Below are positions 2,091-35,220 of a stretch of 64,000 nucleotides of DNA, one piece after another; within the stretch, counting starts at the first letter, position 1; every line of letters starts with the position of its first letter. Source of the stretch: a virus; IMG/VR virus record IMGVR_UViG_3300037504_000213, positions 1-64,000 of that record; one strand, 5' to 3'. Below the pieces are notes generated by a model. It saw nothing but the letters and a program-made list of their open reading frames with translations. It made no database searches and was not told where the DNA came from. A program made the position numbers and the translations under genes.

Positions 2091-3290
2091 TTACGGTGCG
2101 CTGCCTCCATTCCAAACCCACGTCCACCCGTGATCGTTCACGAGGGAGTAGATGTATTCAAGGCCTGTTGACGGCGTTGCAGCCGCTTGATACGTGCCGC
2201 TTGGCGTGGCGTTGCCACTGCCGCCGATGTTTCCCGATGGCGATCCGAACGTCTGATTTCCAGCTTCCGCGTTGGCCCAAAAACCGCGCACGCTTTCGTC
2301 AACAGCCGCTTGAGTGAGCGAATTGCCATCTGCCCGAAATTCCTGAATGGCGTCGAGTCCCTCGGTAGCGCCAGACTCGACGTCATCAAGCTGATTGGCG
2401 TACAGCCACAGCACAGTCAAATTCGACAGGTTGCCCAATTCGGCGGGGATGCTGCCCGTCAGCTGGTTGACGTGCAACCGCAGATCCGTCAAATTCGACA
2501 GGTTGCCCAATTCGGCGGGGATGCTGCCCGTCAGTTGATTGCTGATCAGATACAGCACAGTCAAATTTGACAGGTTGCCCAGCTCTGATGGGATGCTGCC
2601 CGTCAGCTGGTTGATGTGCAACCGCAGATCCGTCAAATTCGACAGGTTGCCCAGCTCTGATGGGATGCTGCCCGTCAGCTGGTTGTCGTACAGATACAGC
2701 CGCGTCAAATTTGACAGGTTGCCCAATTGGGATGGGATGCTGCCCGTCAGTTGGTTGGAGTACAGCAACAGCACAGTCAAATTTGACAGGTTGCCCAATT
2801 GGGATGGGATGCTGCCCGTCAGTTGGTTGATGTGCAACCGCAGATCCGTCAAATTCGACAGGTTGCCCAGCTCTGATGGGATGCTGCCCGTCAGTTGGTT
2901 GGCGTACAGCCACAGCACAGTCAAATTCGACAGGTTGCCCAATTCGGCGGGGATGCTGCCCGTCAGTTGGTTGGAGTACAGCAACAGCACAGTCAAATTT
3001 GACAGATTGCCCAATTCGGCTGGGATGCTACCCGTCAACGCATCCGCATCCGCATCCAACTGCATAATCGCCGCCGCATCGATGCCCGTGAGCTTGACAG
3101 TTTTTGTGCCCGCCGCGAACGTGAATGTCGGCGAGTTCGACTCGCTGACCTGCCCGTCGCTGGCGCCCCATGTGCCCGTGCCGCTTGTGGTCGTGATTGA
3201 CGGGTCGAATGATGCCTCGGCGGTGGTTACAAACGTAATAACACCATCTGGTAAAACCTTTGGGAACAAGAATTGTCTTGCCCTAGTCAT
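2091..3290 (-). CDS. Plant-type leucine-rich-repeat protein, putative adhesin or receptor-binding protein
   Basis: Nine 24-aa repeats of NQLTGSIP(A/S)(E/Q)LGNLSNLTxLxLxx. Confidence 0.9.
   Translation of the reverse strand: MTRARQFLFPKVLPDGVITFVTTAEASFDPSITTTSGTGTWGASDGQVSESNSPTFTFAAGTKTVKLTGIDAAAIMQLDADADALTGSIPAELGNLSNLTVLLLYSNQLTGSIPAELGNLSNLTVLWLYANQLTGSIPSELGNLSNLTDLRLHINQLTGSIPSQLGNLSNLTVLLLYSNQLTGSIPSQLGNLSNLTRLYLYDNQLTGSIPSELGNLSNLTDLRLHINQLTGSIPSELGNLSNLTVLYLISNQLTGSIPAELGNLSNLTDLRLHVNQLTGSIPAELGNLSNLTVLWLYANQLDDVESGATEGLDAIQEFRADGNSLTQAAVDESVRGFWANAEAGNQTFGSPSGNIGGSGNATPSGTYQAAATPSTGLEYIYSLVNDHGWTWVWNGGSAP
2389..3036. repeat. Nine tandem 72-bp repeats encoding the LRRs
   Basis: Near-identical units containing gtcaaatt(c/t)gacaggttgccc...gggatgctgcccgtcag. 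Confidence 0.9.
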
Positions 3291-3667
3291 TATGCCTTCA
3301 AGTTGTAGTAAATAGTGATTTCATCATCCTGATCGCAGGCTGATGTACCACCATTTTCAAGGAATCCGAACTTAAAAAATGACATGTCAAAAGCTGTGTC
3401 TGGGAAACCATATCTAACAGATCCAGAAGGCGAAGCGATATACACTTTGACCTTTCCACTGCTGTATGCAACATGAGATGCCGCGTCACTTGCGTTCGTG
3501 TGATAGGATATAAACGCAAGGTCACCGTTAACACTGGCATTGTCAAAATAGAGTTCGCCACCTGCCCAATTGCGGAAGTCAATTAAATCTGTAGCAATTG
3601 GGCTTCCAGACGACACAGTGGTAGAGCCGCTTTCAAACGCTCTACGCATATTAGTTAGTGGAGCCAT
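3290..3667 (-). CDS. Putative virion structural protein
   Basis: Position in the tail module; beta-rich, Ser/Ala-rich. Confidence 0.5.
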   Translation of the reverse strand: MAPLTNMRRAFESGSTTVSSGSPIATDLIDFRNWAGGELYFDNASVNGDLAFISYHTNASDAASHVAYSSGKVKVYIASPSGSVRYGFPDTAFDMSFFKFGFLENGGTSACDQDDEITIYYNLKA

Positions 3668-3677
3668 GAAAAACTCC

Positions 3678-4046
3678 TTATGAAATCAGTTTTCTGGAAG
3701 CACCCAAGACCATTAGTCGAACAGCGCTCGCAACATCGACACATGCACCAAAAACGCTATTGGCATTGTGCATTCTTATTGGTGGATTAAATTCAAGCAT
3801 ACAGGCACCAGACGCAACAGTAGAGAGTCTGTAGATTTGATCACTGGCCGTAAGCGAACCAGTAGGATTGTAATAAATTGTTACCGACGCACCACTGTCA
3901 TCCGCGAACGCATAAATACCCTGGACCTCCGTTTCTTGCCCACTCGATAATGTATAAAGGGGGCAGGCTGAGGAAACGTCTGGCCTTCCCTTATAAAGAA
4001 CTTCCTGTCTGTCTGTCCATTTAAATTCTTGTCTAATCTGTGGCAT
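3678..4046 (-). CDS. Putative virion structural protein
   Basis: Position in the tail module; GGAG(G) Shine-Dalgarno. Confidence 0.5.
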   Translation of the reverse strand: MPQIRQEFKWTDRQEVLYKGRPDVSSACPLYTLSSGQETEVQGIYAFADDSGASVTIYYNPTGSLTASDQIYRLSTVASGACMLEFNPPIRMHNANSVFGACVDVASAVRLMVLGASRKLIS

Positions 4047-4086
4047 AAGCCCTCCTTGCTATTGTCTGTAAAATTGTGACGACGTG

Positions 4087-5541
4087 CTAATAAAGTACGT
4101 CCGTGCCATGCTTGTCGCTGTAAAAGTGGAAGTCAATTTCGTGAAGATATGCATCGTCAGAATAATCATCTTCTGATGCTGACGACTGTCTAAACACCCT
4201 GCCAACCAACATGGCAGACGTGTGTATGTCAGAACCCGATATACTGCCAATCGATGTAAACTCATGGTTGTGAGACGCTGTAGAAGAACCAGCGCCAATC
4301 AGTGTTTGTGTTGGACCAAACTCACAACCAATAGACGTAAACGTAAACTCAAGTCCCCAAGCCACACTGCCGTCACAAGATGTGCTTTTTGACCAATGCA
4401 CATGTGGTTTAAATATTGTGCCGCTGGCGTAGGAATGCGGAACCTGCATGGTGAAAAACAGCTCTTCATCCTTATTTCCAGCGAATGCGTAGTCATACAC
4501 ACCCGTGCTGGCTGATGACTTGAATGTGGTGAACGTTGGGGCATCAGTGGGGCCAGTCTTGGTTGAGGTTACTGGCACCCTTATGTCATCTACAAACCTT
4601 GCCTCTCCAGAAAGACTCAATGCACCAGATGCGTTAAAGCTGGCACCAGAAACACCAGATGTACCAAAGGTCGCTGTTGTACTATCAACTTGACTTGCAA
4701 CAATGCTGTCTATATAAGCGCTTGACGATAATATGGTAGCAAAGCTGCCACTTGTCCAAGGGATAGATTCATAAACATTTTTGTACCTGTTGTAAATATC
4801 GGGTTGTGCTATTTTCGTATCCGTGTCCCTGAGGTAAATATAGGCATATGTCATTATGCCCTTTGACACAGAAGGTGCGGCTGTTGATATATTTACTGGA
4901 TTGTCCCTGTTAAAACTTGCCCCATAGGCAACTTGCAAGCAGGCAGATGGATCTCTATAAAGCATAGCGTAAAGCGCTGAGTTTGTTGCTGATGGCTTTC
5001 CAGACAAAACGCCTTCGTAAGACTGACCGTCTGCAAAAACCCTGCAACCATCTGCGTCAGTGTAAATCATTGAGTTAATATATATCGATGCACTTTGTGG
5101 AACAGTTTGTCTAACCCATCCGTCAAGAAGTTGGCCATGATCTATATAAACTGGATCTTTGCCATTTGGCTGGTGTTGCTGTGCGTGCGATTGCACTTTG
5201 TCTGGGTAACCGCTCCAGCCATAATCGCCGTCGGTCTGTATAATATTGGTGCTGTCTATGGCAAGCACCTGCTCCCTGTTCGGTTCTTCTTGTGGGTAGC
5301 CAACAATTACGGGAAGATGTAGTTTGGGTTGTATGCGTTGGTTGTATACTGGCTGTGCTGTATCTGATGTTTCGCCATCTCTGTATACCCAGATGTAACC
5401 TGGGCGATTGGATACATATACCCTGTTTTGGGCATCCCCTATAATGCCAAACCATTTTGGCAATGTCTTTTGATACGCAGGGATAAATTGTTCCTGAATC
5501 GCGTTCCTTAAATCATCTCGTGTATATCTTTGTCTTGGCAT
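4087..5541 (-). CDS. Minor tail or tail-fibre protein
   Basis: Downstream of the large tail protein; Ser/Thr/Gly-rich C-terminal beta domain. Confidence 0.55.
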   Translation of the reverse strand: MPRQRYTRDDLRNAIQEQFIPAYQKTLPKWFGIIGDAQNRVYVSNRPGYIWVYRDGETSDTAQPVYNQRIQPKLHLPVIVGYPQEEPNREQVLAIDSTNIIQTDGDYGWSGYPDKVQSHAQQHQPNGKDPVYIDHGQLLDGWVRQTVPQSASIYINSMIYTDADGCRVFADGQSYEGVLSGKPSATNSALYAMLYRDPSACLQVAYGASFNRDNPVNISTAAPSVSKGIMTYAYIYLRDTDTKIAQPDIYNRYKNVYESIPWTSGSFATILSSSAYIDSIVASQVDSTTATFGTSGVSGASFNASGALSLSGEARFVDDIRVPVTSTKTGPTDAPTFTTFKSSASTGVYDYAFAGNKDEELFFTMQVPHSYASGTIFKPHVHWSKSTSCDGSVAWGLEFTFTSIGCEFGPTQTLIGAGSSTASHNHEFTSIGSISGSDIHTSAMLVGRVFRQSSASEDDYSDDAYLHEIDFHFYSDKHGTDVLY

Positions 5542-8500
5542 TACAAAACCGTCCTAAACACCGCGTGCCTGACATATTGTGTTCCGAAATCAGACAAGTT
5601 GCCATATGTTGATTCAAAGTTTGATGCTTCGTCGTAAGAAACCTGCATTGCACATGCCTCCTCGTCTCCTGGAACAATAGCTATGAAGGATGCGTCTACT
5701 GGTGTTGTTAGAATTTTTCTGTATCTATTTATACCAGAAAGTGGCCTATTATGCTCTGTCCATGTTGTTGCAGTGTCAGAAGATGAATAGATGCTTCCAC
5801 CAGTATTAATCGCCCACAGCTTGACATTGCTGGATATGCCGTTAAGGCCATATGATAAGCTGTTCCAGCTGTCACTAGACGAAGGGTGATTCACCAAATT
5901 GAATGTTACTGCATCATCATCGCTGTATAATAGCCTTCTTGGCGTTACATAAATTTCAGTTGATGCTGTACTGGCTATTTCTGGAACTGTTCCCCTAATA
6001 AAGTGTGTGTCATTTCCAAGGTTTGCAGCAGGAGCATGTCGTCTATAAATCAGGTATCTGACAATTCCAGAATAACTGCCACTCCACACATGGTTGACCC
6101 ACCCAGTAGAAGATAACGACAAAAAAAATGTAGTAAATCCATCATTTGTGCCACATCCAGTGCCAAGCAGTTGATCGTACTTTCTGTTTTTAGTGAAACC
6201 GCCATATAGAACTGTTTCGGACGCATCAGAATATGTATAAGATTCTGAATATTGCACAACTATTGGATCATCAAAAAATATTTCAACAGCCGATCTTTCT
6301 GTCAAGCCCCCACCAATATCCGACAAAAAAGAAGACATGTAATTACCAGAAGCGCCACCACTAATGATTGAGCCACTCCTTATTCCAGCATAATTGGTGT
6401 ACGTACCAGCATCGTATGTTACAAGATAACTGGCAGAAAATGCCGAGTCAGAAGATGTTATGCCACCTGCGCCAGTAATCTTTGCTCCGTCCCTCCAAAT
6501 ATACTTATCCAGTGCTGTTCCCGCCCCAAAGGGTGCTTGGGCGGCCACTGACCAGCTGTCGCCATTATCGCTGCTTTGCAGGATATTACCACCACCTTTG
6601 CCCTCATAGCCATTTACAAATATTAGGCTTGATGTTGGCGTAATCGATTTGACGTAACTTGCCGTTGTCCATATTTGATCCCAGAATGGACAGGCACCAA
6701 GTTTCCACCCATCCCCATTGTTATATATTGTCCTGGCACATCTACAGCTGTTTTCGTACTCTATCGCACTATACAATGTGTCTTGTGAGATATTTGATTC
6801 TATATATGGAAAAAACGAAACCTCGTTTCCAGAAGCACCAAGTAATGTACATGCGTCAGACAACGCAAGATTCTCTTGCCAACCGATGGATGTATCCCAT
6901 ACATCACTCTTGTAATAAATGCCGATTTCTGTAACAGCATATGCTTGAACACCATCTGCCATTATAATAATGTCAGACGCACTTACGCCAGCAATGTTAA
7001 GGTCATTTTCTTCCCAAACAACATTGCTGCCATCATCATTTAGGTTTGCAGTCTTATATATCCCGTTGTCAGTCGCAATAACAGCACTTGCTATCACATT
7101 CACATCTGTCAATGGCTCGTCTGGTTCTGGCGGTTCTGGGAACTCATATGTATTCTCATACGAACTTGCGTCCCACTGCCAAGGATCTGGCTCTGTTGTA
7201 ACAGTTGGTGGTGGTGGAAATGTGATACTTGCACTGTTGCCAGGACTTGCCTCTTGCGTAATGACAAGTGTTGTCATCATGGCGTTCGTTTCTGGGTCTG
7301 GTGACAGCCGTGTTTCCTGAACCAACCACCGCTGTGATGTGTCAAGCCCAACATTTCTGTTATTGTTTGATGCAGACATTGTGAGTGTAATGTAAGATTG
7401 AGGAACAGCATCAAATGGATATTGCATGGCCAACGGCACTGTTCCAGATTTAAACGGCTTGTTTAGATCTGCCCTGTATCCACCAGCCCAAGACTCAAGT
7501 TCTGCTGGACTTGCCGATAGACCACGCTCGTAAATAGTAATATCGCCTTCCCAATATGCTGGATCGGCTGGCGACTGTGCACCAATTGGTGTGGCATAAT
7601 CAACGGCATACATCTTTACCTGTGCACTGTTACGCATCGTCTGGCGCGTGAACTGAACTTGATCAATGATGTCGTCTTCTGTGATATTTACAACGTTAAT
7701 GCCATTTTTACACGCCGATGATTTTATAATATCGTTTTCTTCGTCATATATAGCACCAGTCATGTCTACAGACGAAAAGCCAAGCTTGGTTTCTTCAATG
7801 TTCTTCTGTCTCATTGACCACAACGAGCCACGCGGTAAATCTTGATAGACAATTTGGTCATTCTCAGATGGAACATCTTCTGGGTAATACACATCTGTTA
7901 TCTCTGAGGTTGTGGACCACCACTGATCCAGGAAGCGCGTTGCGTTAGCTATGGTAAGTGGCTTATGCTCAATAAATCTTTGCGGTTGGTAAGATGGGTA
8001 GTCATCACCACCAACATTCTCTAACGTAATTGCATAATTGGTTGTTTTGCTTAACACAGCATCGATAGTTGCAACTTCAAACTCAACATAGCTCTCCTCT
8101 GGTTGTACATCAATTGTTTCTGACATGATGTAACCGTTGAAAAGGATGTTGTCTCTATATGGAAAATTTCTGTCACCAGCCTCAACCTGACTTGCACCAA
8201 ACCTGGATTTAGTAAACAAAACGACTTGCGCTTGATCTGGAAAATCTGATGCAGCAGCACCTCCGAAAACACGAAGTCTAGCAGAATGGCCTTTTCCAAC
8301 ACCGCCAGATATTTCGTTTACTACCATCGCTTCATATGGCATGTTGTCACCATCAAAGGCCCACACTGTTCTGTGGCCTTCGTGTGACTTACCGTTTGTG
8401 TCTTCAACCCTTAAATGGAAAGCTGCCCCGCCTGGGGACGCATTGGTATACTCTTTGATAACTGGCGATGATGCCTCCCCAAGTGTTGTGGACTGGGTTC

Positions 8501-9128
8501 CATCAGCGAATGTCCAAGACGCACTTAGGTTTCCAGAAGCCTCAGACCATATCTTGCTAAGCTCTCCAACATGGTACACATCGTATGTTGATGCCCCCTT
8601 CCATACAACAGCTGGTGGACCCATAACCGCCTGTGGCAGAAAAGATGCTGTCTGATCAGTGTAGCTGTATATGCCATCTATGATATAACATGCACTACAG
8701 GCTGTTATGCCACTTGCGTCAGTGAAAGTTGAATAACCAACTTCTGGATAATAAGGCGCTGCTCTGTATTCTGGCACAACGGTTATCCATGTGCCAACAG
8801 CCCAATCAAACGTGTGCTCTCCAGTTTCAGCTATTTCAAGAACTGAGCCGCTAGAGTAGTCTTGTAATACGCGGGACCATCCCTTGTCCCACTTATCACT
8901 GCCACTTGATCCACTGCCAAACCATACGGTCATGTTGCGTTCAATGCCAGATTCTTCGCCAATGCCATTGTTCCATGAGATGGACTGTGTTGGGTATGTT
9001 GTTGGCAGTGGTGTTGTGATTTGTGCTTGCAATATTGGGTCTGGCTTATAAACAGCAAGGTACAGTTCTTGTGCCTGCGGGTATGTCCTTATTTTTGTAA
9101 GCGTGCTTGCAGAAAGTTGGTTTTTCAT
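5541..9128 (-). CDS. Large tail-tip/central fibre protein with a C-terminal beta-propeller-like (Asp-box) region
   Basis: About 1195 aa after TMP and Dit-like gene; Pro-rich linker; SxDxGxSW-like boxes (SSDNGDSW, SDDDAVTF, SSDTATTW). Confidence 0.6.
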   Translation of the reverse strand: MKNQLSASTLTKIRTYPQAQELYLAVYKPDPILQAQITTPLPTTYPTQSISWNNGIGEESGIERNMTVWFGSGSSGSDKWDKGWSRVLQDYSSGSVLEIAETGEHTFDWAVGTWITVVPEYRAAPYYPEVGYSTFTDASGITACSACYIIDGIYSYTDQTASFLPQAVMGPPAVVWKGASTYDVYHVGELSKIWSEASGNLSASWTFADGTQSTTLGEASSPVIKEYTNASPGGAAFHLRVEDTNGKSHEGHRTVWAFDGDNMPYEAMVVNEISGGVGKGHSARLRVFGGAAASDFPDQAQVVLFTKSRFGASQVEAGDRNFPYRDNILFNGYIMSETIDVQPEESYVEFEVATIDAVLSKTTNYAITLENVGGDDYPSYQPQRFIEHKPLTIANATRFLDQWWSTTSEITDVYYPEDVPSENDQIVYQDLPRGSLWSMRQKNIEETKLGFSSVDMTGAIYDEENDIIKSSACKNGINVVNITEDDIIDQVQFTRQTMRNSAQVKMYAVDYATPIGAQSPADPAYWEGDITIYERGLSASPAELESWAGGYRADLNKPFKSGTVPLAMQYPFDAVPQSYITLTMSASNNNRNVGLDTSQRWLVQETRLSPDPETNAMMTTLVITQEASPGNSASITFPPPPTVTTEPDPWQWDASSYENTYEFPEPPEPDEPLTDVNVIASAVIATDNGIYKTANLNDDGSNVVWEENDLNIAGVSASDIIIMADGVQAYAVTEIGIYYKSDVWDTSIGWQENLALSDACTLLGASGNEVSFFPYIESNISQDTLYSAIEYENSCRCARTIYNNGDGWKLGACPFWDQIWTTASYVKSITPTSSLIFVNGYEGKGGGNILQSSDNGDSWSVAAQAPFGAGTALDKYIWRDGAKITGAGGITSSDSAFSASYLVTYDAGTYTNYAGIRSGSIISGGASGNYMSSFLSDIGGGLTERSAVEIFFDDPIVVQYSESYTYSDASETVLYGGFTKNRKYDQLLGTGCGTNDGFTTFFLSLSSTGWVNHVWSGSYSGIVRYLIYRRHAPAANLGNDTHFIRGTVPEIASTASTEIYVTPRRLLYSDDDAVTFNLVNHPSSSDSWNSLSYGLNGISSNVKLWAINTGGSIYSSSDTATTWTEHNRPLSGINRYRKILTTPVDASFIAIVPGDEEACAMQVSYDEASNFESTYGNLSDFGTQYVRHAVFRTVL

Positions 9129-9472
9129 GATGCCACCACGTGTGTTATTCTGACTTCCAGTCCATCCCACAGGTGATCTCCTGGCCCTTGTGTCCCAGGA
9201 GATGTAATTTCAACAAAGAAGGATGCAGATGATGCTGCTGTTTTTGAGTTTGGATTCATGATCATACCGTTTTTAGATTCTCCGTCGTCGTAAGCTCTCC
9301 ACGTAGCGTAATCTGATTCCGAAAGAGCACCAAACGTTAGAGTCAGTGCGGTGTAATAGCCCTTAACACGACCGCCAGAATGCCTTCTGCCAAGATTAAC
9401 TGGCTCGTCATACACAACGGATGTTGGCTGCACTGGTGACGCCCCGCCTATTTCAAATATAGCTTCTGTCAT
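9125..9472 (-). CDS. Distal tail protein-like
   Basis: Small gene immediately after the TMP. Confidence 0.45.
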   Translation of the reverse strand: MTEAIFEIGGASPVQPTSVVYDEPVNLGRRHSGGRVKGYYTALTLTFGALSESDYATWRAYDDGESKNGMIMNPNSKTAASSASFFVEITSPGTQGPGDHLWDGLEVRITHVVAS

Positions 9473-12400
9473 CTTATACCCAAGCCTCCTCTACCGCCAG
9501 CGCCACTTGGGGTGCTAACCATTGATGGCAGCACCTCATCAACATATACCTCTCTCGCTTGCTCTTTAACAACCTCGCCCTCAAGCTCTATAACATTGTT
9601 TATTCTAGTCTTGGCTTTCATGTACCACGGTGCCGTTGTTTGTGCGCTTGATTGAGACATGGCTGTTGACGGCGAACGTGCTGGAGGCGCAACACCACCA
9701 CCAAACACGCCAGAGCCAAACCCAGGCGACCGCGTGTTGGTCATTCTTCTGTTGCCACCAGTTATTGTCATGCCCATTCCAGTAGCCATGTTTGCTAATG
9801 TGGAGTATCTTTGCTGAAGCATGGTTTGCATCATTATAGTTGTCTTATTAATTTCTCCAGCAACCGCAGCCCTTTCCAAGCCGTATTGATCAAGAAGTTG
9901 TTGGATATAGAGGTTGTGCTGGTTTTTCATTGTGGTTTCAACGTCATCCCACTTATCAAGCTCAGCCTGTATGAGTTTGTTTTTGTTGTCCTCAGCTTTT
10001 TCAATAGACTTCTGGTATTTGGAGGCAATGTCCTCAAGCGCCTTGTTGTAATCGGCAAGTGTGTCTTGTTTAGATTGATTGAATTTCCTTAAGGCATCTG
10101 CACGAGCCTGATCGTATACTCTGAGTTGATCTGTTACAGCATCCCTGAAGTCTTGTTGCGCGTCCTGGTTTGCCCTCTTTTGGTCAAGATATGCGTCTTC
10201 TATAGCACGCTTTGTTTCAACTCTCAGTTCTTCTAATGACGCAGCCTGCTCTGTTGCCCTTGCCTCAGCAGCACCTTCTCTGGCAAGCATCTCCGCTTCG
10301 TTTGCTCTGTCAAGTGCGTCTTGCAATGCCAACGCATCTCGCTCTCGTATTGCGTCATCCCTGTCTTTCGCATAATCGCGCCATATGTCACGAAGCTCTT
10401 TTTGAAGATCATTGTTGATGTCACGAATGCGCTCTGACGAACGTAGCTCAATGTCCTCCTCTTTTCTTACCCTGTCTGTCTCAATATCCTCAAGCTCTCT
10501 TGCCAAATCCTGCGCGTTATCACGGCGTTTTCTTCGTAGGTCTATGCCAAGTTCTCCAACACCCGCGGAGACACCAGATAACGAAATGTTGTTTAATGCT
10601 GCTTCGACGTCTCCAATTTGTCTAATAGTATCCAGCTTTATCTCGTTGACACGCCTGCCATAGTCCTTGGCAAGCTCACCCATCTTTTCTTGATAAGTGT
10701 CAAGTGCTGCTATCTCGTCCTCAAGTTTTTTGCTATCGAGTTTTTCTATTTCTGTGTTGTAGTCGTCTATGATTTTTTCGATGTTGCCTGATATTTCTTC
10801 CTGAGCATCGCCAATTTCCTTGGCAAGTATTTCCATTTTGCTTGAAAGGGCTTCAGAAAACGCCTTCTGTTGATTTATTGCGGCTGTTTCTTTTTGAGCA
10901 GCGGCCTTGGCTTGTTCTGCTGCTTCCTCTGACTGCTTCCAGAGGTTATATGCCTGCTCAATGTTTTGATATTCTCGTTCGGTTACTTGGTTAAGGCCCG
11001 CCATGCCAGCAAAACCTTGAAGACCAAACTGAGACTCTGTACCCCTAGCTCTCAACACCTCTTTCCTGAACGCAAGTTCTGCTTCCAGCGCCTTGCGTCT
11101 CTCGTCTGTTAGGTTTTTGTTCTTCTCAAGTTCGGTTTCAATAATCTTTACACGTTTTTCTGCGGCATTTACTTGCTCTTTTGTTAGAGCGGCATCCGCT
11201 TCTCCTGGTTGATAGAACTCAAGCTCATTGCCAAGTGCAAACCTCGCCCGCTTGATTTCTTCAATAGTCGTTCTGTCAATACCAAGACTAGAAAGAAGCT
11301 GCTCAAATGGGTCAAGTTCAATCAAGCCAAGTTCCTTCATGGCGTTAAGTTCGCCGTAAATGCCCTCAAGCTCTTCTTGCAACTTGGCGAGTTCTTGCTG
11401 CTTGGCGGTTAATTCGTCAAATACATTGCCAATATTTAAAACGCCCTCGTCTGTTTGCTCTACCAAAACCTTACCAGCCCGAAGCGCCTCGTTAAGTGCA
11501 AGTTGGCTTTTCTCATTCTCTGTAAGCTGGCGGCCAATCTTGGCCTCCATATCGGCTATGGCTTCTCTGTTGATCAAGCCCTGACCAGCAATGTTGTCTA
11601 GCCTTTGCGTTGAACCTGTGATAATACCATCTATAAGGTCTTCGAATTGTTTGCCATATTCAATACCTTGGGCACCAGCGGTTACAAGCGCGGTTTTGAT
11701 TAAGTCTGGCAGCGCTTCGCCCAAATTGCCAGACATGTCACTCATCAGCGCCTTGGTGGCCTTGCCAACAAGTTCTGTCTCATCTATAAGTCCTCCAGCT
11801 GCATCCTTTATGTCATCCAGAAGCCTGACTGGGTTGTCTACACCACGTTGGGCTGCTAGGTTCAAAAAAGCCTGTTCGGAACGTTGAAGCTGTGCAAACC
11901 CTTGGCCAGCTTCTATGGTTGACTCTTTCCATTCTTTGTGGCCTTCTGCAACATTAACAAGAGCTTCGCGCAACGTCCCAAGAACACCAAGAACACCAGT
12001 CACAGCAAACGACAGCTTTCCCAAGCGTTCCATCCACGAGTCTGACCCATCCCTTACGTTGTCTATGGCATTCTTGGCAACCCTAGTGGCTTTGGCAAGA
12101 TCATATGTGCCCTTTACCATTTCTGGCAACGCCTTGTTGTGCCCCTGTCTGCCCAAAAACCCAATGAGGGTTCTCATAGTGTCGCCTGCATCTTGCCTTG
12201 CCTTATTGGCTCTTTCTTCTGTTCTTGCAAGTTCAACGTTGCGCTGTGCAGCCTCGACACTCGCCTTCGCCCTGTTGTATGTGAAATCCTCAAGTTTCTT
12301 TTCTGCCCACAGTCTTAATCTTACTATAATGTTCGCTTCTTTTTCGGATTCAATTGTTTTTTTGTTTACACTCAGGAATGCTTCTTGTGACGCATTTCTG

Positions 12401-13947
12401 GCTGCCTGTCGTTTTCGCATAGCGTCGTCTAATTTGGATTGCTCCTCATCTAGTTTCTTTTTTGCTTTTGCTACTTTTATAGACTCTTCCATGCCAAAAG
12501 CGACGCGGAGTTCCATCTCCTCTTGTTCTGTTGCTGTTTTAATAAGTTCTTGCCGTGCGGCGTTAGTGAGACCAGTTTTAATACCGAGTTCTTCCTGCCT
12601 GTTTGCTACAAGCTGATCTGCTTCAGCAACAGCGCGTTGGTAATTCAGCAGCGCGTCTAGCTGTTTTGTTGTGAGCTGTCTGCCCTTCACGAGTCCATCA
12701 ATAGCTTGAATTTGTTCTTCAAGCCTCTGCTTTCCGACTTTCCTAACTTCATTTATATCGTACTCGCCGTTGATATAATTTGATATTGCAGTCTGTGCAT
12801 CGCGATACATTGAAACAAGGCCAGCTGTAGAAGCAACAATTTCACTAGCAATTACATTTCCTATATTCGATGCGGCTTCTGATATATTTTGAACCTGCTG
12901 TTCTCCGATAATAGCTGATGCTATTTTTGGAGCAACAGAACTAGTAACAAAATTAGCTATATCACTAAATGCGCCCTTATATATCTTGGCGGTGTTTTTA
13001 ATTACATCTACTCCCAGGCCAAGTGCGGTTGGCGTAATGGTACCAACTGCTTCGCCTAGTGCCCCGCCAGTTTGCATATCTTGCAATCTTCTAAGCCTGA
13101 GTTCCGTTAATCGTTCTTCTTCTCTTGCAAGGCCAAATTCAGCACCACGGGCGCGTTCTTGTGCTTTTTGTCCCTGATAGGCTCTGTAGGTTCTGCCAGC
13201 GCCCATTAACGCGCCCATTGCAAGACCAGCACCACCAGCGATAGGGGCAATGCCGCCAGCAGCGGCAAAGGCACCAGTCGCAAAGCCTGCGGCAGATATT
13301 GCTGGCGTAGCAGTGGCAGCAGCGACCATTATTCTTCTGCGTTTTTCAAAGCCCTCTGCAAGTGCATCTGTGTTCTCTTCAAGGCCAAAAAGAAGCTGAT
13401 CAAACCTTTCAAGCATAACAGCGTTGACGACAGATTCGTTAAACGCAGACCACACGTCAGCGCGCCTTATCAGAAGGTCAATTTGTTTTTCAATAGCATT
13501 TGAGCCTCCCTTTATCATTTGTATTTCTTTTCGTAGTTCTAGTTCTCGCTCTTTTGCGGCAGAACGTTGGGCTTGACGCTGCGTTTTGCGCTCATGCTCG
13601 GCCTTCCTGTTAATTTCCCTTTGTTTTTCGGTTAGTCTTGTTTCCTCGGCAGTTAACTTGACACGCTTCGTGACCTCTTTAGATCGCTCCTCACCAGCTT
13701 TTGATCTTACGGTTCTGAGCATTTGCTCTGTGAGCTTTTTCTCTTCGTCTGTAAGCTGCTGGATGCCACGCTGCATTTGTCTCAACATTGGTTCAGCTTC
13801 GTGCTGGAATGCCTTAAAGAACGCCTCAACACTGTTGATTGACGTTCTGGCCTCGCTCTTGATCTGATCGATTTCAACGCTTATTCGATTAAGCGAGTTG
13901 CTTACATCTTCAAGTTGTCTCGCTACATCACGCGGCGTATCTGCCAT
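9469..13947 (-). CDS. Tape measure protein
   Basis: 1492 aa, helical/coiled-coil, with hydrophobic Ala/Gly segments; canonical position. Confidence 0.85.
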   Translation of the reverse strand: MADTPRDVARQLEDVSNSLNRISVEIDQIKSEARTSINSVEAFFKAFQHEAEPMLRQMQRGIQQLTDEEKKLTEQMLRTVRSKAGEERSKEVTKRVKLTAEETRLTEKQREINRKAEHERKTQRQAQRSAAKERELELRKEIQMIKGGSNAIEKQIDLLIRRADVWSAFNESVVNAVMLERFDQLLFGLEENTDALAEGFEKRRRIMVAAATATPAISAAGFATGAFAAAGGIAPIAGGAGLAMGALMGAGRTYRAYQGQKAQERARGAEFGLAREEERLTELRLRRLQDMQTGGALGEAVGTITPTALGLGVDVIKNTAKIYKGAFSDIANFVTSSVAPKIASAIIGEQQVQNISEAASNIGNVIASEIVASTAGLVSMYRDAQTAISNYINGEYDINEVRKVGKQRLEEQIQAIDGLVKGRQLTTKQLDALLNYQRAVAEADQLVANRQEELGIKTGLTNAARQELIKTATEQEEMELRVAFGMEESIKVAKAKKKLDEEQSKLDDAMRKRQAARNASQEAFLSVNKKTIESEKEANIIVRLRLWAEKKLEDFTYNRAKASVEAAQRNVELARTEERANKARQDAGDTMRTLIGFLGRQGHNKALPEMVKGTYDLAKATRVAKNAIDNVRDGSDSWMERLGKLSFAVTGVLGVLGTLREALVNVAEGHKEWKESTIEAGQGFAQLQRSEQAFLNLAAQRGVDNPVRLLDDIKDAAGGLIDETELVGKATKALMSDMSGNLGEALPDLIKTALVTAGAQGIEYGKQFEDLIDGIITGSTQRLDNIAGQGLINREAIADMEAKIGRQLTENEKSQLALNEALRAGKVLVEQTDEGVLNIGNVFDELTAKQQELAKLQEELEGIYGELNAMKELGLIELDPFEQLLSSLGIDRTTIEEIKRARFALGNELEFYQPGEADAALTKEQVNAAEKRVKIIETELEKNKNLTDERRKALEAELAFRKEVLRARGTESQFGLQGFAGMAGLNQVTEREYQNIEQAYNLWKQSEEAAEQAKAAAQKETAAINQQKAFSEALSSKMEILAKEIGDAQEEISGNIEKIIDDYNTEIEKLDSKKLEDEIAALDTYQEKMGELAKDYGRRVNEIKLDTIRQIGDVEAALNNISLSGVSAGVGELGIDLRRKRRDNAQDLARELEDIETDRVRKEEDIELRSSERIRDINNDLQKELRDIWRDYAKDRDDAIRERDALALQDALDRANEAEMLAREGAAEARATEQAASLEELRVETKRAIEDAYLDQKRANQDAQQDFRDAVTDQLRVYDQARADALRKFNQSKQDTLADYNKALEDIASKYQKSIEKAEDNKNKLIQAELDKWDDVETTMKNQHNLYIQQLLDQYGLERAAVAGEINKTTIMMQTMLQQRYSTLANMATGMGMTITGGNRRMTNTRSPGFGSGVFGGGVAPPARSPSTAMSQSSAQTTAPWYMKAKTRINNVIELEGEVVKEQAREVYVDEVLPSMVSTPSGAGGRGGLGIR

Positions 13948-15131: not shown

Positions 15132-15189
15132 AAATAACTCCTTGTCTGATAGCTATCATCGCTATCAAGATGTGACAAGGGGTTGTGGG

Positions 15190-15651: not shown

Positions 15652-16280
15652 AAATCAATGTCCAAATCCAAGTTTTCTGTCCAATCCTTTGCCAACATGC
15701 CTGAAAAATCCTTGGCCAATGACACAAAAACATTATCTTCAGCAATATCGTCTTTAAATGGATAGGCATAAACGCCTCTCTCTTTAATCTTTCTCCATAT
15801 CGGAAACGCTGGCAAGCTCCTTGCGTCAGCCCATAACATAATGGGCGTCCAAGGCAGGTTTGGTATTGGATCAGTCCCGAACTCAAGGTTGGCGGCTGCC
15901 AGAAACTCTTTCCCGCCAGAATTGTAATAATACAAGTCACTGTACACCGTCATGCGATTTCCATCAATAACGTACTGCCAGCTTTTGGAAAGCTCTCCAG
16001 TGTAGTAGTGATCTTCGTTGGCAATGAAGTCTTGTATCTCGCTGATTATTGCGTCTCCAACCTTTTCAAGGAAAGACTCTGCCAATTGCTCTGGAACCAT
16101 TGAGGCCACCGTGACAAGAAATTGCATCTCGTCAGTGGCCTCAATTGTCAGCAAATCTTCTTCTGATGGCAAATCTGGTCGAAGGCTTGCTATCATTTCC
16201 TTAATCTTAGATTTTAGGTCATTTACCCAATTCTCAAGCCTGTCCGCAAGGCCAGTTATTCCATTAAACAGTTTTTGCAA
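15648..16280 (-). CDS. HK97 gp10-like neck/tail-completion protein
   Basis: YTGELSKSW...LEFGT...YPF motifs. Confidence 0.6.
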   Translation of the reverse strand: MQKLFNGITGLADRLENWVNDLKSKIKEMIASLRPDLPSEEDLLTIEATDEMQFLVTVASMVPEQLAESFLEKVGDAIISEIQDFIANEDHYYTGELSKSWQYVIDGNRMTVYSDLYYYNSGGKEFLAAANLEFGTDPIPNLPWTPIMLWADARSLPAFPIWRKIKERGVYAYPFKDDIAEDNVFVSLAKDFSGMLAKDWTENLDLDIDL

Positions 16281-17625
16281 TCTCCCTTATAAGCTGCGCA
16301 ACGTTTTTTGCCCCACTGCCAGTGCCCTGATCCATTCTTCTCACAAAGTCTGCCATGTCTTTTCTGTAGTCGTATTCACTTGTAATGTGAATACGAATAG
16401 CTTCCGCAATATCATCGACATTCATATCTACATCCATTGGGTACTGCGTGCCGTAAACCTCATCTTTGTACTCATCAGCGTAGATGAGGGGAACGCCATC
16501 CAACACAGCTGCTTCTGTAGCAGAATTTGTGGCTGTGCACGATATGAGCAGCGACGCACTTGCAAGGACATTGCGGTATTCATCAAAGTCTGTAATAATA
16601 CGAAGATCTAGCGATTTGAATGGTTCAACGTGTTCTTGCACATGAGCCTCGCTTGGGTGTGGCTTGTACACCACAACAACTTGCTTATCTGTGCTTTCTG
16701 CAAACTTTTTTACCGCCTCGGCTATTGTAGACATCCATCTGGTCACAACGCCAAAGCCATGCTGGCCAGCGTGAGCCTGTTCTTCTGTGCCAATAACTGT
16801 GAGTACAATGGCGTCAAGGGGAAGATCAAGTACACGTCGTGCCATATCGCGTGATATGGCGTCTGCGGCTTGCCACATTTCATCAAAATGAGGGTTGCCA
16901 GTTACGATATACTGGCACTCATCGTTCCCGCGTTCTCTGTACCAATCAACATGATGCTGTCCTCCACAGCACAGGTGTGTAGCAAATGTGATGTCATGTA
17001 CGTCTGGCTCATTTGGGTCAAACTGCCTGTAGTGATTGGCATGAGGGATGTGAATGACATTTTCGCCAAGATGATTCAACATCATAGCCGTTGGTCTGGC
17101 ACGTGCTGTTACATCCTCCCATGTCAAGAATCCTACAAAGTTATCAATGCGTTGCGACACCCACCAAGCTCTGAACATATCTCTTGCAGCCTCAATGACA
17201 TTTCCCAAAAGAAGGGCATCTTCTGGCACATGATGTTTGGCAATTTTATCAAGAAACGTTCGGCTGGCGTCATGTATATATTTCCCAAGTTCGACCTTGG
17301 GAAGCTCCATGTTCACCACATGGTATCCACCTCTCGTCATGTATTTGCTAATATCATCGGATATTGGCAAAAAGAAAAAGTCATCCTTCAGGTGTGGAAG
17401 CACTGGCAGTACCGTATGCCTGCCACCAACGTGAACCATAATTAATGGCTTCTCTAGTGAAATTGTGTCTTGTGAGGGCGGTTTAGTGCGAATTTTTTCA
17501 TGCGCCCAAGGCAGCATTGCGTATTCCAACGCCACGTTGAGATCTACCCCGTCCACCATGCACCCCTGCCATTTAAAGGCTGTGTCGAGGGCTAAGTGGT
17601 GCAACTCACGATTCTTGTCTGTCAT
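16264..17625 (-). CDS. GT-B glycosyltransferase, sialyl/nonulosonyl-transferase-like
   Basis: VTGNPHFD, VVYKPHPSE (HP motif), SATEAAVLDGVP C-terminal GT-B signature. Confidence 0.6.
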   Translation of the reverse strand: MTDKNRELHHLALDTAFKWQGCMVDGVDLNVALEYAMLPWAHEKIRTKPPSQDTISLEKPLIMVHVGGRHTVLPVLPHLKDDFFFLPISDDISKYMTRGGYHVVNMELPKVELGKYIHDASRTFLDKIAKHHVPEDALLLGNVIEAARDMFRAWWVSQRIDNFVGFLTWEDVTARARPTAMMLNHLGENVIHIPHANHYRQFDPNEPDVHDITFATHLCCGGQHHVDWYRERGNDECQYIVTGNPHFDEMWQAADAISRDMARRVLDLPLDAIVLTVIGTEEQAHAGQHGFGVVTRWMSTIAEAVKKFAESTDKQVVVVYKPHPSEAHVQEHVEPFKSLDLRIITDFDEYRNVLASASLLISCTATNSATEAAVLDGVPLIYADEYKDEVYGTQYPMDVDMNVDDIAEAIRIHITSEYDYRKDMADFVRRMDQGTGSGAKNVAQLIREIAKTV

Positions 17626-19027
17626 TAAACATCTCCTGGTATGTGCTTGTAGCTGGTGCAGATGGAAGCTGGCGTGTTTGCTTAACTTTCATGGCATTTA
17701 CAGCAAACGCTATGTAACGATGTTGATTGGCAAATGCTGTAAGATTTTGCCTTGCATGCCTCATTGCGCCTAGCATTTTTTCCTTCTCCGCACTTAGGTT
17801 ATCAATAACCTGTCTTAACTTATTATACCATGCAGATTGTGTATTTTCAACTAAATGACCAAACGAGTTTGCCATTAGCTTGGGTGCTGCACTTGGGATG
17901 TAGCTGTCCTTATCCTGGTATGGCGCGCCGTTTGTTGCAATAAATGGTACACCAGCCATCATGTATTCCAGAACCTTAATCCACGATCTGTGCTCATCAT
18001 ACGAATAGCCAAAGTCATCTATTGGTTCAAGCTCAAGTGGCGCAATACCAACGTCAAACGTAGACACAACCAGTGGCCATGTGTAGCTGTTTACATAACC
18101 CTGGTGAATAATACGATCCTTTGGTACGTTGCCAAGTGGACCATCAATAATTCTTGTGTCGCCACCGCAAATCTTAATCATAACATTGTCTGTCTCTTCA
18201 ATTATTTGCTCAAGCGCTGGCACAATGTTGCTCAGATAAAAGCTGTCAAGGTGACCAGAGCTTCCACCCCATCCAATGATGATCTGGCGTTCGCTTCCAT
18301 CTCTTTCAGCTACATCAAATCGTCTTTGATCTGCCAAATGAGACACTGCATTAACGAATGATCTTGCTGGCATATTGCCCCACGATGGAAGATAGGCAGA
18401 TATGTTGTCCTGCATAAGCTGGTGCATCACATCTGCATCTATTGGCCTATTGTGCGGTTCGAACATAACGTCTGGCGCGCCGATTTGTTTTTGTCTAACG
18501 GTTCTATATGATCGCGGGTCTGCAAAGTTTGGAAGATGAAATACTGGCAGTGTTGCATCAAATCTCTTCCAAGATTCCAACAAAACCTTCGATGGTGAAA
18601 CGACACCGTCGCTGTGATTTACGACACCTTCTATTAGACCTTCAACAGTGTCGTACGGCAATCCAGATCTGCCCTTGACCCAGTACTGGTGCGCTGGGTT
18701 AATCGGCGGCAGGGCAGTGTAGTGATCATCCAAATCTACCAAGACAACCTGCCCGCGCAGCCTAAAACGATCCATTGCCTCCATAATGGATTTATCAAAG
18801 ACGTTTCTTTCCATAATGATAATATCGGCAGTTCCGATCAGCCTGTCAACTTCTGGGTCTCTCCAACGCGCTGCCGAGTTTAGGTGAATAACCTGAGCTT
18901 CAAGGATGTTGCCACCACCAGTTATGTTTATGCTGTCTGCTGGTGTTCTGGATCTCCACTGAGAGACATTGGCGTTTCTAATATCATCAGCATACAAAAA
19001 CATTAACTTCAACTTGTTCTCTTGCAT
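17606..19027 (-). CDS. Glycosyltransferase (GT4-like, phage type)
   Basis: WRSRTP, VDLDD, IGWGGSSGH, DVGIAPLE, SWIKVLEYMMAGVPFIAT. Confidence 0.8.
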   Translation of the reverse strand: MQENKLKLMFLYADDIRNANVSQWRSRTPADSINITGGGNILEAQVIHLNSAARWRDPEVDRLIGTADIIIMERNVFDKSIMEAMDRFRLRGQVVLVDLDDHYTALPPINPAHQYWVKGRSGLPYDTVEGLIEGVVNHSDGVVSPSKVLLESWKRFDATLPVFHLPNFADPRSYRTVRQKQIGAPDVMFEPHNRPIDADVMHQLMQDNISAYLPSWGNMPARSFVNAVSHLADQRRFDVAERDGSERQIIIGWGGSSGHLDSFYLSNIVPALEQIIEETDNVMIKICGGDTRIIDGPLGNVPKDRIIHQGYVNSYTWPLVVSTFDVGIAPLELEPIDDFGYSYDEHRSWIKVLEYMMAGVPFIATNGAPYQDKDSYIPSAAPKLMANSFGHLVENTQSAWYNKLRQVIDNLSAEKEKMLGAMRHARQNLTAFANQHRYIAFAVNAMKVKQTRQLPSAPATSTYQEMFNDRQES

Positions 19028-19057
19028 GTTTCCTCCGAATCAAATAAGTCCGACCTA

Positions 19058-19086
19058 ATTATAGATCGGACTTAATATTATGTCAA
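19058..19086 (-). promoter_or_regulatory. Perfect sigma70/sigmaA promoter for the glycosyltransferase pair
   Basis: TTGACA-17 nt-TATAAT; overlapped by inverted repeat TAAGTCCGA/TCGGACTTA. Confidence 0.8.
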
Positions 19087-19096
19087 TACCAATATA

Positions 19097-19603
19097 TTAA
19101 TTGTAGTCGAACTGATCTTTCCTAAACGAAGGCTGCACAAGATCTGAGTCGTCAAGAAGCTCTTCTTTGTCGGTTTTGCTTTGTCCAGTTATCTTGACAT
19201 GTGTGTTATAAGTAAGGCCAAGCTCACTGAGTTTTGAGCACTTTAACATATCCAGGTTTTCAAGATACTCTTTTCGTCTCAACTCCCCCCTGGTTCTTTC
19301 CTCTATGGAGATCGTTGCAGATATTTGCCTATCCTCTGCTCTCCATGCGGCATACAGCGCGCTTGTGATAGTCAGGAATGGATAAAATGCTATGTCACTT
19401 CCGACTGGAACCGTATATCCGCGTGTCGCTAAAACAGCATTTATTTGCTGATCTGCGACATTCAACCATGTGTTTACAACGGTCAGTGAAGGATTAGTGT
19501 CACTGGCAAAATTACTTGCGCCAGTGCCACCATAGTCGGCGTCCGTAAATATGACTCCTTCTCCGACTATGGCAGCAACATCAGAGGCGGATGCGTACGA
19601 CAT
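19097..19603 (-). CDS. Head-tail adaptor (Mu gp36-like)
   Basis: MSYASASDV start, INAVLATRGYTVP; directly after the capsid gene. Confidence 0.65.
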   Translation of the reverse strand: MSYASASDVAAIVGEGVIFTDADYGGTGASNFASDTNPSLTVVNTWLNVADQQINAVLATRGYTVPVGSDIAFYPFLTITSALYAAWRAEDRQISATISIEERTRGELRRKEYLENLDMLKCSKLSELGLTYNTHVKITGQSKTDKEELLDDSDLVQPSFRKDQFDYN

Positions 19604-19609
19604 TAAATA

Positions 19610-20596
19610 CTAAGCTAAGCAGTCCGATACGAGGAGTCCAGCCTCAGAGCTAACGACCACTTCGTCAACAAAGTGCTCGGCAACCATCTTGGTAAAGCCT
19701 TCCTCGTCATATCTGAATTCCTTGATTTGTCTTGGAACGCCGATATAGTCTGGAACCCATTCTACAATCGCACCAGCTGTTGGATTCATGAACGCTGGAG
19801 CGGCATCAACGTAACCCCACCAACAGTAATCGCCATCCCATATATCTGACATTGACGATTCCTCGCCCTGATCAGATGTGTCATAGATGGCTGTACCGAT
19901 AAGGATTCTTTCCATCTCCCACATAGCCTGAAGAAGCTGCACGGTGACCATAGCTGGTTGGCCGTTGGTCGCACCACCTTCTACACGAGCAAGCATATCT
20001 GGATGATTCCTGAGAGCCTGCCACGTCTTGGCACCCATAACAACAGTGTTTGGATACACGCCCATCTGTGTTCTGAACGTTTCTCTAATATCAAGGCCAC
20101 CCTTGATAACCTCAGCAGTGTCGTCATTAAACTGAGCGCCAAAGATGTTTGTCGCAGTATCAGAGTTGCTGCTCCAATTGCCACTCGTGTTAACCATGTC
20201 GGCAACACGCTTTTCCATGCTCAGGAACAGTGCGTCCATCGCCAATTCCATAGTTGTGGTTCGTATCAGCGGTCTAGCGGCATCATCTGCGATGTCAAGC
20301 GTGTGATCCAGCAATCTTTCACCGTGAGAATAGTTCTCACAATTATATGTCCCTGGATCCCCCATACCCCACGTCGATGTGGAGTACTTGGTGCCTGGAG
20401 CATGAGCAGTCGCCTTCAGTCTAAATCTGTCGTTCTTCTGTAACTTTCTGAACTGACCAGACTGCTGATCGGATCTGAACATTGGGAAAATGAGTTCGGC
20501 AATGTACTGCATGTTGGAGTAGCCCGTAGCCAGCTGGCTAAGGACACGGTTAATTGCATTGATTTGATTCTTACCTAAAGTTGGATTATAAGCCAT
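19610..20596 (-). CDS. Major capsid protein
   Basis: LSQLATGYSN..YIAELIFP, PNTVVMG..W.ALRNHP; GGAGG SD. Confidence 0.85.
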   Translation of the reverse strand: MAYNPTLGKNQINAINRVLSQLATGYSNMQYIAELIFPMFRSDQQSGQFRKLQKNDRFRLKATAHAPGTKYSTSTWGMGDPGTYNCENYSHGERLLDHTLDIADDAARPLIRTTTMELAMDALFLSMEKRVADMVNTSGNWSSNSDTATNIFGAQFNDDTAEVIKGGLDIRETFRTQMGVYPNTVVMGAKTWQALRNHPDMLARVEGGATNGQPAMVTVQLLQAMWEMERILIGTAIYDTSDQGEESSMSDIWDGDYCWWGYVDAAPAFMNPTAGAIVEWVPDYIGVPRQIKEFRYDEEGFTKMVAEHFVDEVVVSSEAGLLVSDCLA

Positions 20597-20607
20597 TATT
20601 GTTCCTC

Positions 20608-21045
20608 CTAGCTCGCAATGCCGTCGCCAGCATCAGTATCAAAGTGTGGCGGCAAAATGAGACCAGTACCCAACTTTGAACCACTTGTAAATGTTGGCCC
20701 AAGGTAACGACCGTATCTCGAAGACGCGCCAGAGGCCGCAACAACAGCGCCATTTGTGTGAACAGTAAACCAATCACCAGTGCTAAGACCATTGCTTGCT
20801 CTGACAATTGCCTCACCCATATAAACAAGTCTTACGAATTCACCAGGGCACGAAGAAAGGTTAAACTGTGACGGAAGCACTCCAAGTGCCGTTGGGTTGC
20901 TGGCACCAGTAGCCTTGGCGACATATGGAATTTCGTCATTTCTTGTCGCACTCCCGTTAGGGGCGAAAAAATAGCCCATATCAGAAGCATACAAAGCGTT
21001 TGAAGCACAAACCCCAATTGTAGCCTGCCATCCTTCAGTAGGCAT
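20608..21045 (-). CDS. Capsid decoration/cement protein
   Basis: Small Gly/Ala/Ser-rich gene between scaffold and capsid. Confidence 0.55.
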   Translation of the reverse strand: MPTEGWQATIGVCASNALYASDMGYFFAPNGSATRNDEIPYVAKATGASNPTALGVLPSQFNLSSCPGEFVRLVYMGEAIVRASNGLSTGDWFTVHTNGAVVAASGASSRYGRYLGPTFTSGSKLGTGLILPPHFDTDAGDGIAS

Positions 21046-35216: not shown

Positions 35217-35220
35217 TGGC

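Follow-up and report, generated by a model that had tools for sequence, protein, structure and literature searches.

Alanine followed by serine or cysteine is strongly over-represented in a set of peripheral virion proteins of an uncultivated phage, known from the IMG/VR virus record IMGVR_UViG_3300037504_000213 (a contig of 76,273 bp; the window analysed here is its first 64 kb). This motif, written A[SC] for the Ala-Ser (AS) and Ala-Cys (AC) dipeptides combined, is a real, protein-level and lineage-specific signature that makes no distinction between Ser and Cys and excludes Thr. Its core is an Ala with Ser or Cys directly after it, and the residue preceding the Ala is often small (Ser or Gly, in relatives Ser or Thr); the motif is selected at the protein level in the tail hub, a fibre-like protein, small distal tail proteins, a cement-like protein and the N-terminus of the head-tail adaptor. 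The phage, called G0 below, also encodes two predicted glycosyltransferases, GT1 and GT2, and G1 onward denote other IMG/VR contigs that carry GT1. As the same excess is seen again in distant phages that have these enzymes, AS/AC is a good candidate, still unproven, for a motif that marks glycosylation sites.

Ala-Ser and Ala-Cys in the virion proteins of G0

Dipeptide counts were compared with values expected from within-protein shuffles. In seven late-module proteins pooled (2368 aa), AS was found 59 times against 22.5 expected (z 8.6) and AC 11 times against 1.8 (z 7.3), ranks 1 and 2 among the 400 dipeptides; 4.7 is the family-wise 95% limit for the largest z. Ser or Cys comes next after 70 of the 207 Ala in these proteins, that is, after one third of them, and the position before the Ala is enriched for Ser or Gly. 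SA, AA, SS, CA, AT and GS were flat in the same pool. No AS excess was seen in 11 other structural proteins (23 against 22.8, z 0.05) or in 71 non-structural ones (59 against 64.3, z -0.7). A first-pass annotation of this DNA had pointed to the seven proteins from hand counts of AS and of Cys following Ala, and a recount reproduced all of these; in particular, Ala precedes six of the nine Cys of the hub (its tail-tip protein) and all three Cys of the 3678-4046 protein. The seven carriers and three comparators, in order of position, are:

3290..3667, minus strand, distal tail-module protein, 125 aa (AS 4; A[SC] 5 against 1.9)
3678..4046, minus strand, distal tail-module protein, 122 aa (AS 5 plus AC 3 against 1.7 expected)
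4087..5541, minus strand, fibre-like protein, 484 aa (AS 9; A[SC] 10 against 4.7)
5541..9170, minus strand, tail hub, 1209 aa (AS 26 against 10.6; AC 6 against 0.74)
9125..9472, minus strand, small distal tail protein, 115 aa, directly after the tape measure protein (AS 4 against 1.0)
9469..13947, minus strand, tape measure protein, 1492 aa, comparator (AS 8 against 8.5 despite 189 Ala; about 7 by the earlier hand count)
19097..19603, minus strand, head-tail adaptor, 168 aa (four AS, all in residues 4-34), which opens the adaptor-GT1-GT2 cassette
19610..20596, minus strand, E-like major capsid protein, 328 aa, comparator (AS 0; A[SC] 0 against 2.1 expected)
20608..21045, minus strand, capsid cement- or decoration-like protein, 145 aa, between the Mu-I-like protease and the major capsid protein (AS 7; A[SC] 7 against 2.1 expected)
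22069-23466, minus strand, Mu-like portal, comparator (AS 2)

The enrichment was still present after correction for composition, by within-protein as well as block shuffles. When shuffling was restricted to blocks of 10, 20 or 40 residues, z stayed at about 8; the undiminished signal is therefore not a matter of local Ala/Ser richness. With AA, SS and SA also flat, local low-complexity clustering of Ala and Ser was ruled out. The earlier claim that the signal lies in the protein was borne out by the codons, as the hexamers that encode A[SC] were enriched in frame 0 only (29.5 per 1000 codons; the other two sense frames gave 1.7 and 4.6) and every Ser codon family was used. A DNA-level motif was ruled out, there being no out-of-frame or antisense excess, and the sole codon effect was an under-use of GCT before Ser or Cys. 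In an unbiased ranking by shuffle p-value of the 114 open reading frames (ORFs) of at least 80 aa, the named proteins took places 1-5, 9 and 10, with the 3678-4046 protein joint first.

The hub has 423 remote homologues. An AlphaFold2 (AF2) model of its N-terminal 640 aa reached a predicted local distance difference test score (pLDDT) above 90, a long C-terminal extension lying beyond, and its Foldseek matches were to hubs of contractile injection systems (CIS), VgrG and Mu gp44, and this part models confidently as a tail hub of the gp27/VgrG/Mu gp44 type. In an alignment with 35 homologues, 30 of its 32 A[SC] sites fell at variable positions or in insertions, and the only conserved sites were AS244 (18/35) and, partly, AS217. 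Structural AS sites conserved across the family were ruled out on this basis. The A[SC] z of the hub was 7.2 in G0, whereas 149 family representatives averaged 0.64 and reached 4.0 at most, with a mean of 1.7 in the closest quartile. The hub gene had no megablast match among phages, and tblastn matched only phage Rctr41k; a word-index protein search, with the hub and also with GT2, returned only the query itself, and a scan of genome contigs found no hub relative.

The carriers are unrelated to one another in sequence. The ESM-Atlas clusters that lie nearest to the 145-aa protein in features and in structure carry the Phage_cement_2 and E217 gp24-like cement families, a lead only to a role as capsid cement protein. 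At its N-terminus the 484-aa protein shows homology to the gene that follows the hub in G1, G2 and Rctr41k, and the same-position counterpart of the 115-aa protein in G1 shows 4 against 1.5. The 122-aa protein had no Pfam or PHROG match, and the adaptor family, pooled, showed no enrichment (26 against 27.6). Among the AS-rich proteins, the only blastp matches were between the hubs of G0 and G1 and among three paralogues of G7; a shared domain or paralogy as the cause of AS richness was ruled out by this near absence of mutual matches.

Few or no motifs occur in the internal or tightly packed proteins (major capsid, tape measure and portal) and in GT1. In the families of GT1, portal and major capsid protein A[SC] was mildly depleted (z -2.6, -2.2 and -1.4), which is suggestive only. 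The 68 homologues of the GT1 family hold 116 A[SC] against 146 expected, with none at all in the GT1 of G0 and G7, and avoidance of self-modification might, weakly, be reflected in this.

Recurrence in phages with GT1 and absence from controls

Seventeen other GT1-bearing contigs were taken whole, with ORFs called crudely. In G7, whose GT1 is only 31% identical to that of G0, four structural-module proteins held 39 AS against 15.1 (z 6.8) and 9 AC against 2.3 (z 4.7), so that these two once more headed the 400 dipeptides, and its major capsid protein, tape measure protein and GT1 were at or below expectation. AC and AS were the two highest dipeptides in a 655-aa Dit-like protein of G12, and AS was the highest in sets from G10 and G1 that include the adaptor, the hub and the small protein after the tape measure. 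The position before the Ala was enriched for Ser or Thr in these other phages, independently of G0. In all, the A[SC] signal was seen in G0, G7, G12, G10, G1, G15 and G16.

The sets from G7, G12, G10 and G1 were picked on the A[SC] or AS score itself, and therefore AC was tested in proteins chosen by AS alone (z of at least 2.5; 30 of 717 proteins, in 11 genomes). These 30 proteins held 25 AC against 10.2 (z 5.0; 0 of 1000 shuffles), with CA, GC, SC, AT and AG flat; the remaining 687 had 241 AC against 235.5. When the coupling of an XS excess to XC was calculated for all 20 residues X, only Ala stood out (z 4.6), Gly being next at 2.3 and the rest at or below 1.0, and AT showed no coupling to the AS excess. 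A second batch of six contigs gave 13 AC against 7.1 (13 of 1000 shuffles) together with a deficit of AT (35 against 59.6); one 893-aa protein in it had 46 AS against 27.8 and 8 AC against 2.3. The first-pass idea that Cys is interchangeable with Ser after Ala thus recurs, with Thr excluded, in two independent batches of phages with the same glycosyltransferase family.

Phage Rctr41k (KX853513) encodes homologues of both hub and fibre, and no match to the GT1 family or to NeuB was found in it. In this relative the hub held 10 A[SC] against 9.5 and no ORF exceeded z 2.5, the outcome that the first-pass annotation had looked for in phages lacking glycosyltransferases. Lambda showed no A[SC] signal, and 252 dereplicated control proteins, taken from the tail regions of lambdoid phages and from other loci, reached a maximum AS z of 3.4, with no AC coupling in the eight AS-high ones (1 against 2.6).

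These results bear on two further readings. An AS excess of trivial or other cause might have generated AC as a mutational by-product at abundant AS sites, since TGY is one base from AGY and TCY and Cys is rare (20 in 2368 residues). However, Ala precedes 11 of the 20 Cys (55%) and only 59 of the 257 Ser (23%) in the seven proteins, so that the tie of Cys to Ala is tighter than that of Ser; a single step likewise separates Thr codons from those of Ser, yet AT is flat or in deficit, and of the 20 residues Ala alone has the coupling. This origin of AC is decidedly improbable. Chance, composition or selection would be a still poorer account: the proteins of G0 were chosen by eye in the first pass and those of other genomes by A[SC] or AS score, and dipeptide z values would be inflated in real proteins, where a z of about 5 for some dipeptide arises in roughly 1 in 60,000 tests. 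But the signal passed the unbiased ORF ranking, the family-wise threshold and the block shuffles, and the AC tests in two batches of proteins chosen by AS, the 20-residue internal control and the negative controls leave an artefact largely refuted.

Glycosyltransferases, nonulosonic-acid operon and a candidate glycosylation

According to profile searches, the seven carriers lie in a siphophage-type late module on the minus strand, at about 2.1-25.7 kb of the window. Its order is terminase, portal, protease, the 145-aa protein, major capsid protein, adaptor, the two glycosyltransferase genes and tail completion genes, followed by the major tail protein, the tape measure protein, the 115-aa and 1209-aa proteins, three more and a leucine-rich-repeat (LRR) protein. 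A nonulosonic-acid operon is directly upstream. The features needed here, beyond those above, are:

2091-3290, minus strand, LRR protein at the end of the tail module (A[SC] 2 against 3.3)
14682-15131, minus strand, major tail protein (AS 4 against 1.7, a weak excess)
16264..17625, minus strand, GT2, a putative TagF/KpsS/LIC12162-like GT-B transferase with a KPHP motif, overlapping GT1 by 20 nt
17606..19027, minus strand, GT1, a GT-B, GT4-like glycosyltransferase by model (A[SC] 0 against 2.6 expected)
21045-22151, minus strand, Mu-I-like protease
26051..36201, minus strand, nonulosonic-acid operon, from profile searches

GT1 matched phrog_7162 and, weakly, Pfam Glyco_trans_1_4 (23.5 against a cut-off of 27). 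Its AF2 model (pLDDT 75.6, predicted template modelling score 0.78) has two Rossmann-like domains in a GT-B arrangement, and Foldseek matched it to BshA, MshA, PimA, sucrose-phosphate-synthase-like proteins and also OGT (E 1e-12 to 1e-14), with probability 1.00 for BshA, MshA, PimA and related enzymes. The protein is therefore modelled as a GT4-like enzyme of GT-B fold; besides the 68 homologues, 359 tblastn relatives were found in IMG/VR. The profile matches of GT2 stayed below cut-off (Pfam Glyphos_transf, 19.1 against 22.1 bits; TIGR04396, surface carbohydrate biosynthesis protein, E 2.4e-7, 30.3 against 125). Its Atlas neighbours, by features and by structure, consistently carry PF04464, PF05159 and LIC12162, of the TagF and KpsS/KpsC families, and the KPHP motif is present in its sequence. 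The TagF, KpsS/KpsC and LIC12162 families use donors linked to cytidine diphosphate (CDP) or cytidine monophosphate (CMP), and GT2 is a candidate CMP-ulosonic-acid transferase. A tblastn search with GT2 against the phage collection gave no match. Homologues of major capsid protein, adaptor, GT1 and GT2 stand in the same order as in G0 in G3-G10 and G12, and the adaptor-GT1-GT2 cassette is common to at least nine uncultivated phage contigs of 46-65% GC; G1 and G2, two phages of 100 kb in which the hub also occurs, each carry GT1 and a pair of NeuB genes but lack GT2.

The operon (26051-36201) encodes a PseB-like dehydratase, a NeuB/PseI-like synthase (NeuB match E 7.8e-36), two class-III aminotransferases, a weak PseG-like protein, a methyltransferase, an ATP-grasp enzyme and a KdsB-like cytidylyltransferase, the match of the last being weak, and its proteins show no A[SC] excess. 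Homologues of the cytidylyltransferase, aminotransferases and NeuB lie elsewhere on the same contig in G3-G10 and G12. Of the first 13 GT1-bearing records (G000-G012), 12 have NeuB, and the figure for all 18 records searched is 13, most of the NeuB-negative ones being fragments of 25-37 kb. Two observations on these genes stand apart from the argument. In the protein at 26051-27166 (minus strand) the KdsB-like part is N-terminal, and after it comes a weak match to sigma-70 region 4 of extracytoplasmic function (ECF) factors at residues 275-350 (E 0.002), and the NeuB-family matches G003:C1:35187-35798 and G004:C1:24958-25563, on two high-GC contigs, each contain one in-frame TGA, which could stand for two genes, a broken gene or recoding.

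The explanation proposed, to which we give about an even chance from these sequence data, is that the A[SC] motif marks acceptor sites of the phage's own cytoplasmic glycosylation machinery. The late operon would co-express GT1 and GT2 with their target proteins, and the adjacent operon would provide a CMP-activated nonulosonic acid (NulO). GT1, being GT4-like, would probably use a nucleoside-diphosphate (NDP) sugar as donor, and GT2, being TagF/KpsS-like with an HP motif, probably a CMP-ulosonic acid. One of the two transferases would put the first sugar on the hydroxyl of Ser or the thiol of Cys in the motif, the beta-methyl group of Thr being excluded, and the other would extend or cap the glycan. 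S-glycosylation of Cys is what we infer from the dipeptide statistics. The enzyme context, a nonulosonic-acid operon and a glycosyltransferase pair within a head-tail operon, fits glycosylation. A bolder and only tentative version would have a whole clade of tailed phages 'sialylate' its own virions at a minimal [S/G/T]-A-[S/C] sequon by means of the cassette and its own NulO pathway, with Cys S-linked and interchangeable with Ser. If so, the sequon would be the first defined by sequence for a cytoplasmic O-/S-glycosylation system of proteins, and Cys in it the first case of S-glycosylation beyond small bacteriocin peptides and OGT.

The acceptor-site reading goes back to the first pass and is supported in part: the enrichment, the GT-less relative, the Ser/Cys equivalence and the enzymes favour it, but its link to the glycosyltransferases is imperfect, and several results weigh on the other side. 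G2, G8 and G9 carry GT1, and G8 and G9 also GT2, without the A[SC] signal; a scan of the 400 dipeptides revealed no alternative sequon in G1 or G2. The share of AS-high proteins was 30/717 (4.2%) in GT-bearing phages and 8/252 (3.2%) in controls, barely higher, so it is the extremes and the AC coupling that carry the replication. The cassette-free controls are few and partly redundant, because the lambda-J loci are mostly lambdoid prophages 88-100% identical to one another and few independent ones were left after dereplication. Two sugar-pathway enzymes, an ATP-grasp homologue of G4 (L120:17195-18469, 10 AS/AC against 3.5) and a nucleotide-sugar epimerase of G1 (L028:13454-14470, 8 against 3.1), are rich in AS/AC and are a misfit to a virion-only pattern. 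The GT4-like fold of GT1 is by itself no sign of a protein acceptor, and flagellins undergo cytoplasmic NulO glycosylation without a sequence consensus (PMC7591256).

The earlier claim of a bias confined to predicted exposed virion proteins needs qualifying, as the LRR protein at the tail end has no enrichment and the major tail protein only a weak one. In the hub model, 16 of 24 motif Ser/Cys were in loops and, at strand sites, five of six residues were no more than one from a strand end; the resulting 21/24 in loops or strand ends is not significantly unlike the other hub Ser/Cys, of which 39/67 were in loops (secondary structure only). The hub sites occupy variable alignment columns, and conservation and hydropathy, used as proxies of exposure, did not discriminate them. 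As a separate matter, the repeats of the LRR protein themselves give extreme dipeptide z-scores (IP 9 against 0.9).

The motif could be real and selected, and yet serve another Ser/Cys-directed chemistry, such as acylation, dehydroalanine or cross-link formation, or phospho-type transfer by the TagF-like GT2, or else a structural role as small-residue pairs for packing in peripheral virion proteins. The statistics establish a motif and not a chemistry, the nearest families of GT2 include glycerophosphotransferases, and an ATP-grasp ligase is encoded in the operon. However, homologues of this ligase are absent from G7 and G12 despite their strong signals, Pfam scans of the module found no lanthipeptide-, YcaO- or formylglycine-type enzyme, and the formylglycine context C/S-x-P-x-R was absent. 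The carriers, moreover, are non-homologous proteins of different folds (hub, cement, Dit-like, fibres), which argues against a fold requirement. We consider this group of explanations somewhat unlikely, though the most serious of the rivals.

An improbable alternative is that a host factor (a protein-glycosylation system, a chaperone or a protease) reads the motif, the phage glycosyltransferases and NulO pathway acting on something else, such as the host envelope or the phage's receptor. Among hosts, a PglL-type system that favours Ser with Ala beside it has been described (PMC8423747), and the imperfect association of glycosyltransferases and signal in G2, G8 and G9 would agree with a host reader. 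Against it, the glycosyltransferase pair lies inside the head-tail late operon and not among early or lysogeny genes. Tailed-phage virions assemble in the cytoplasm, and therefore periplasmic oligosaccharyltransferases cannot reach virion proteins.

Comparison with known glycosylation systems

Mycobacteriophage virions are glycosylated (Freeman 2023, Cell Host Microbe, cited in PMC12619734), and, as far as the citing account goes, G0 resembles that system in having phage glycosyltransferases beside structural genes, with virion proteins as presumed targets. The same account places the mycobacteriophage glycans at the C-termini of capsid and tail-tube subunits, whereas in G0 the major capsid protein has no motif and the tail tube is weak, and the candidate targets, identified from sequence alone, are the hub, fibres and cement protein. 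G0 further differs in its nonulosonic-acid pathway and in the dispersed dipeptide motif, including Cys, that is proposed here.

O-glycosylation of flagellin with pseudaminic or legionaminic acid follows no sequence consensus, and the Maf/FlmG system, with a donor that is CMP-activated and soluble, modifies a surface-exposed structural protein in the cytoplasm before it is assembled (PMC7591256), as is proposed for G0. A NeuB-type synthase and a cytidylyltransferase are likewise encoded in the genome. In contrast to flagellin glycosylation, a motif is proposed, Thr is excluded although it is used in flagellins, and no match to Maf (MptE-like, PF01973) was found at E <= 0.1 across the whole 76-kb record. 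FlmG joins an N-terminal TPR domain to a glycosyltransferase domain; the Pfam scan found no TPR family for GT1 or GT2, and no direct comparison with FlmG was made.

PglL of Burkholderia strongly prefers Ser over Thr and favours Ser flanked by Ala (PMC8423747), and this likeness to G0 extends to PglL-type O-glycosylation in Burkholderia and Neisseria. PglL, however, is a periplasmic, lipid-linked oligosaccharyltransferase acting on disordered Ala/Pro-rich regions, whereas the enzymes of G0 would be soluble and of GT-B fold and the sites are spread across folded domains. No PglL-like gene was seen in G0. Glycocin enzymes of the SunS/ThuS/GccA type have a GT-A fold and belong to family GT2, and one of them, ThuS, accepts both Ser and Cys. 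Glycocins are O- and/or S-glycosylated, on Ser and Cys (PMC12457901), and both residues are proposed as acceptors in G0 as well. Their enzymes act on small ribosomal peptides, whereas both phage glycosyltransferases are predicted GT-B proteins with no detected homology to them, and no SunS/ThuS-type (GT2-family, GT-A) transferase was matched among the scanned ORFs. The GT4-type GT-B enzyme GtfA/GtfB O-glycosylates Ser, often in Ser-Ala-type dipeptide repeats of serine-rich-repeat adhesins; its acceptors are long low-complexity repeats, unlike the isolated motifs at variable positions of globular proteins in G0. No report of nonulosonic-acid glycosylation of phage virions, or of such a motif, was found in the literature searched.

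If the motif is indeed an acceptor site, it would be a readable and portable sequon for cytoplasmic protein glycosylation, a class that includes the flagellin systems and is not known to follow a sequence rule. Phages would then coat selected virion parts with sialic-acid-like sugars, which could influence adsorption and stability, and glycosylated virion proteins would become predictable from sequence in hundreds of metagenomic phages, given the GT1 relatives in IMG/VR. A transferase that tolerates Ser and Cys, with a recognition element of two to three residues, would be a tool for glyco-engineering. Even with a different chemistry, a replicated, lineage-specific dipeptide signature in unrelated virion proteins calls for explanation.

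Elsewhere in the window, the phage gene at 46429-48003 on the minus strand codes for a protein of the Ro60/TROVE type that has a vWA domain (Pfam E 4.8e-59 and 5.1e-24).

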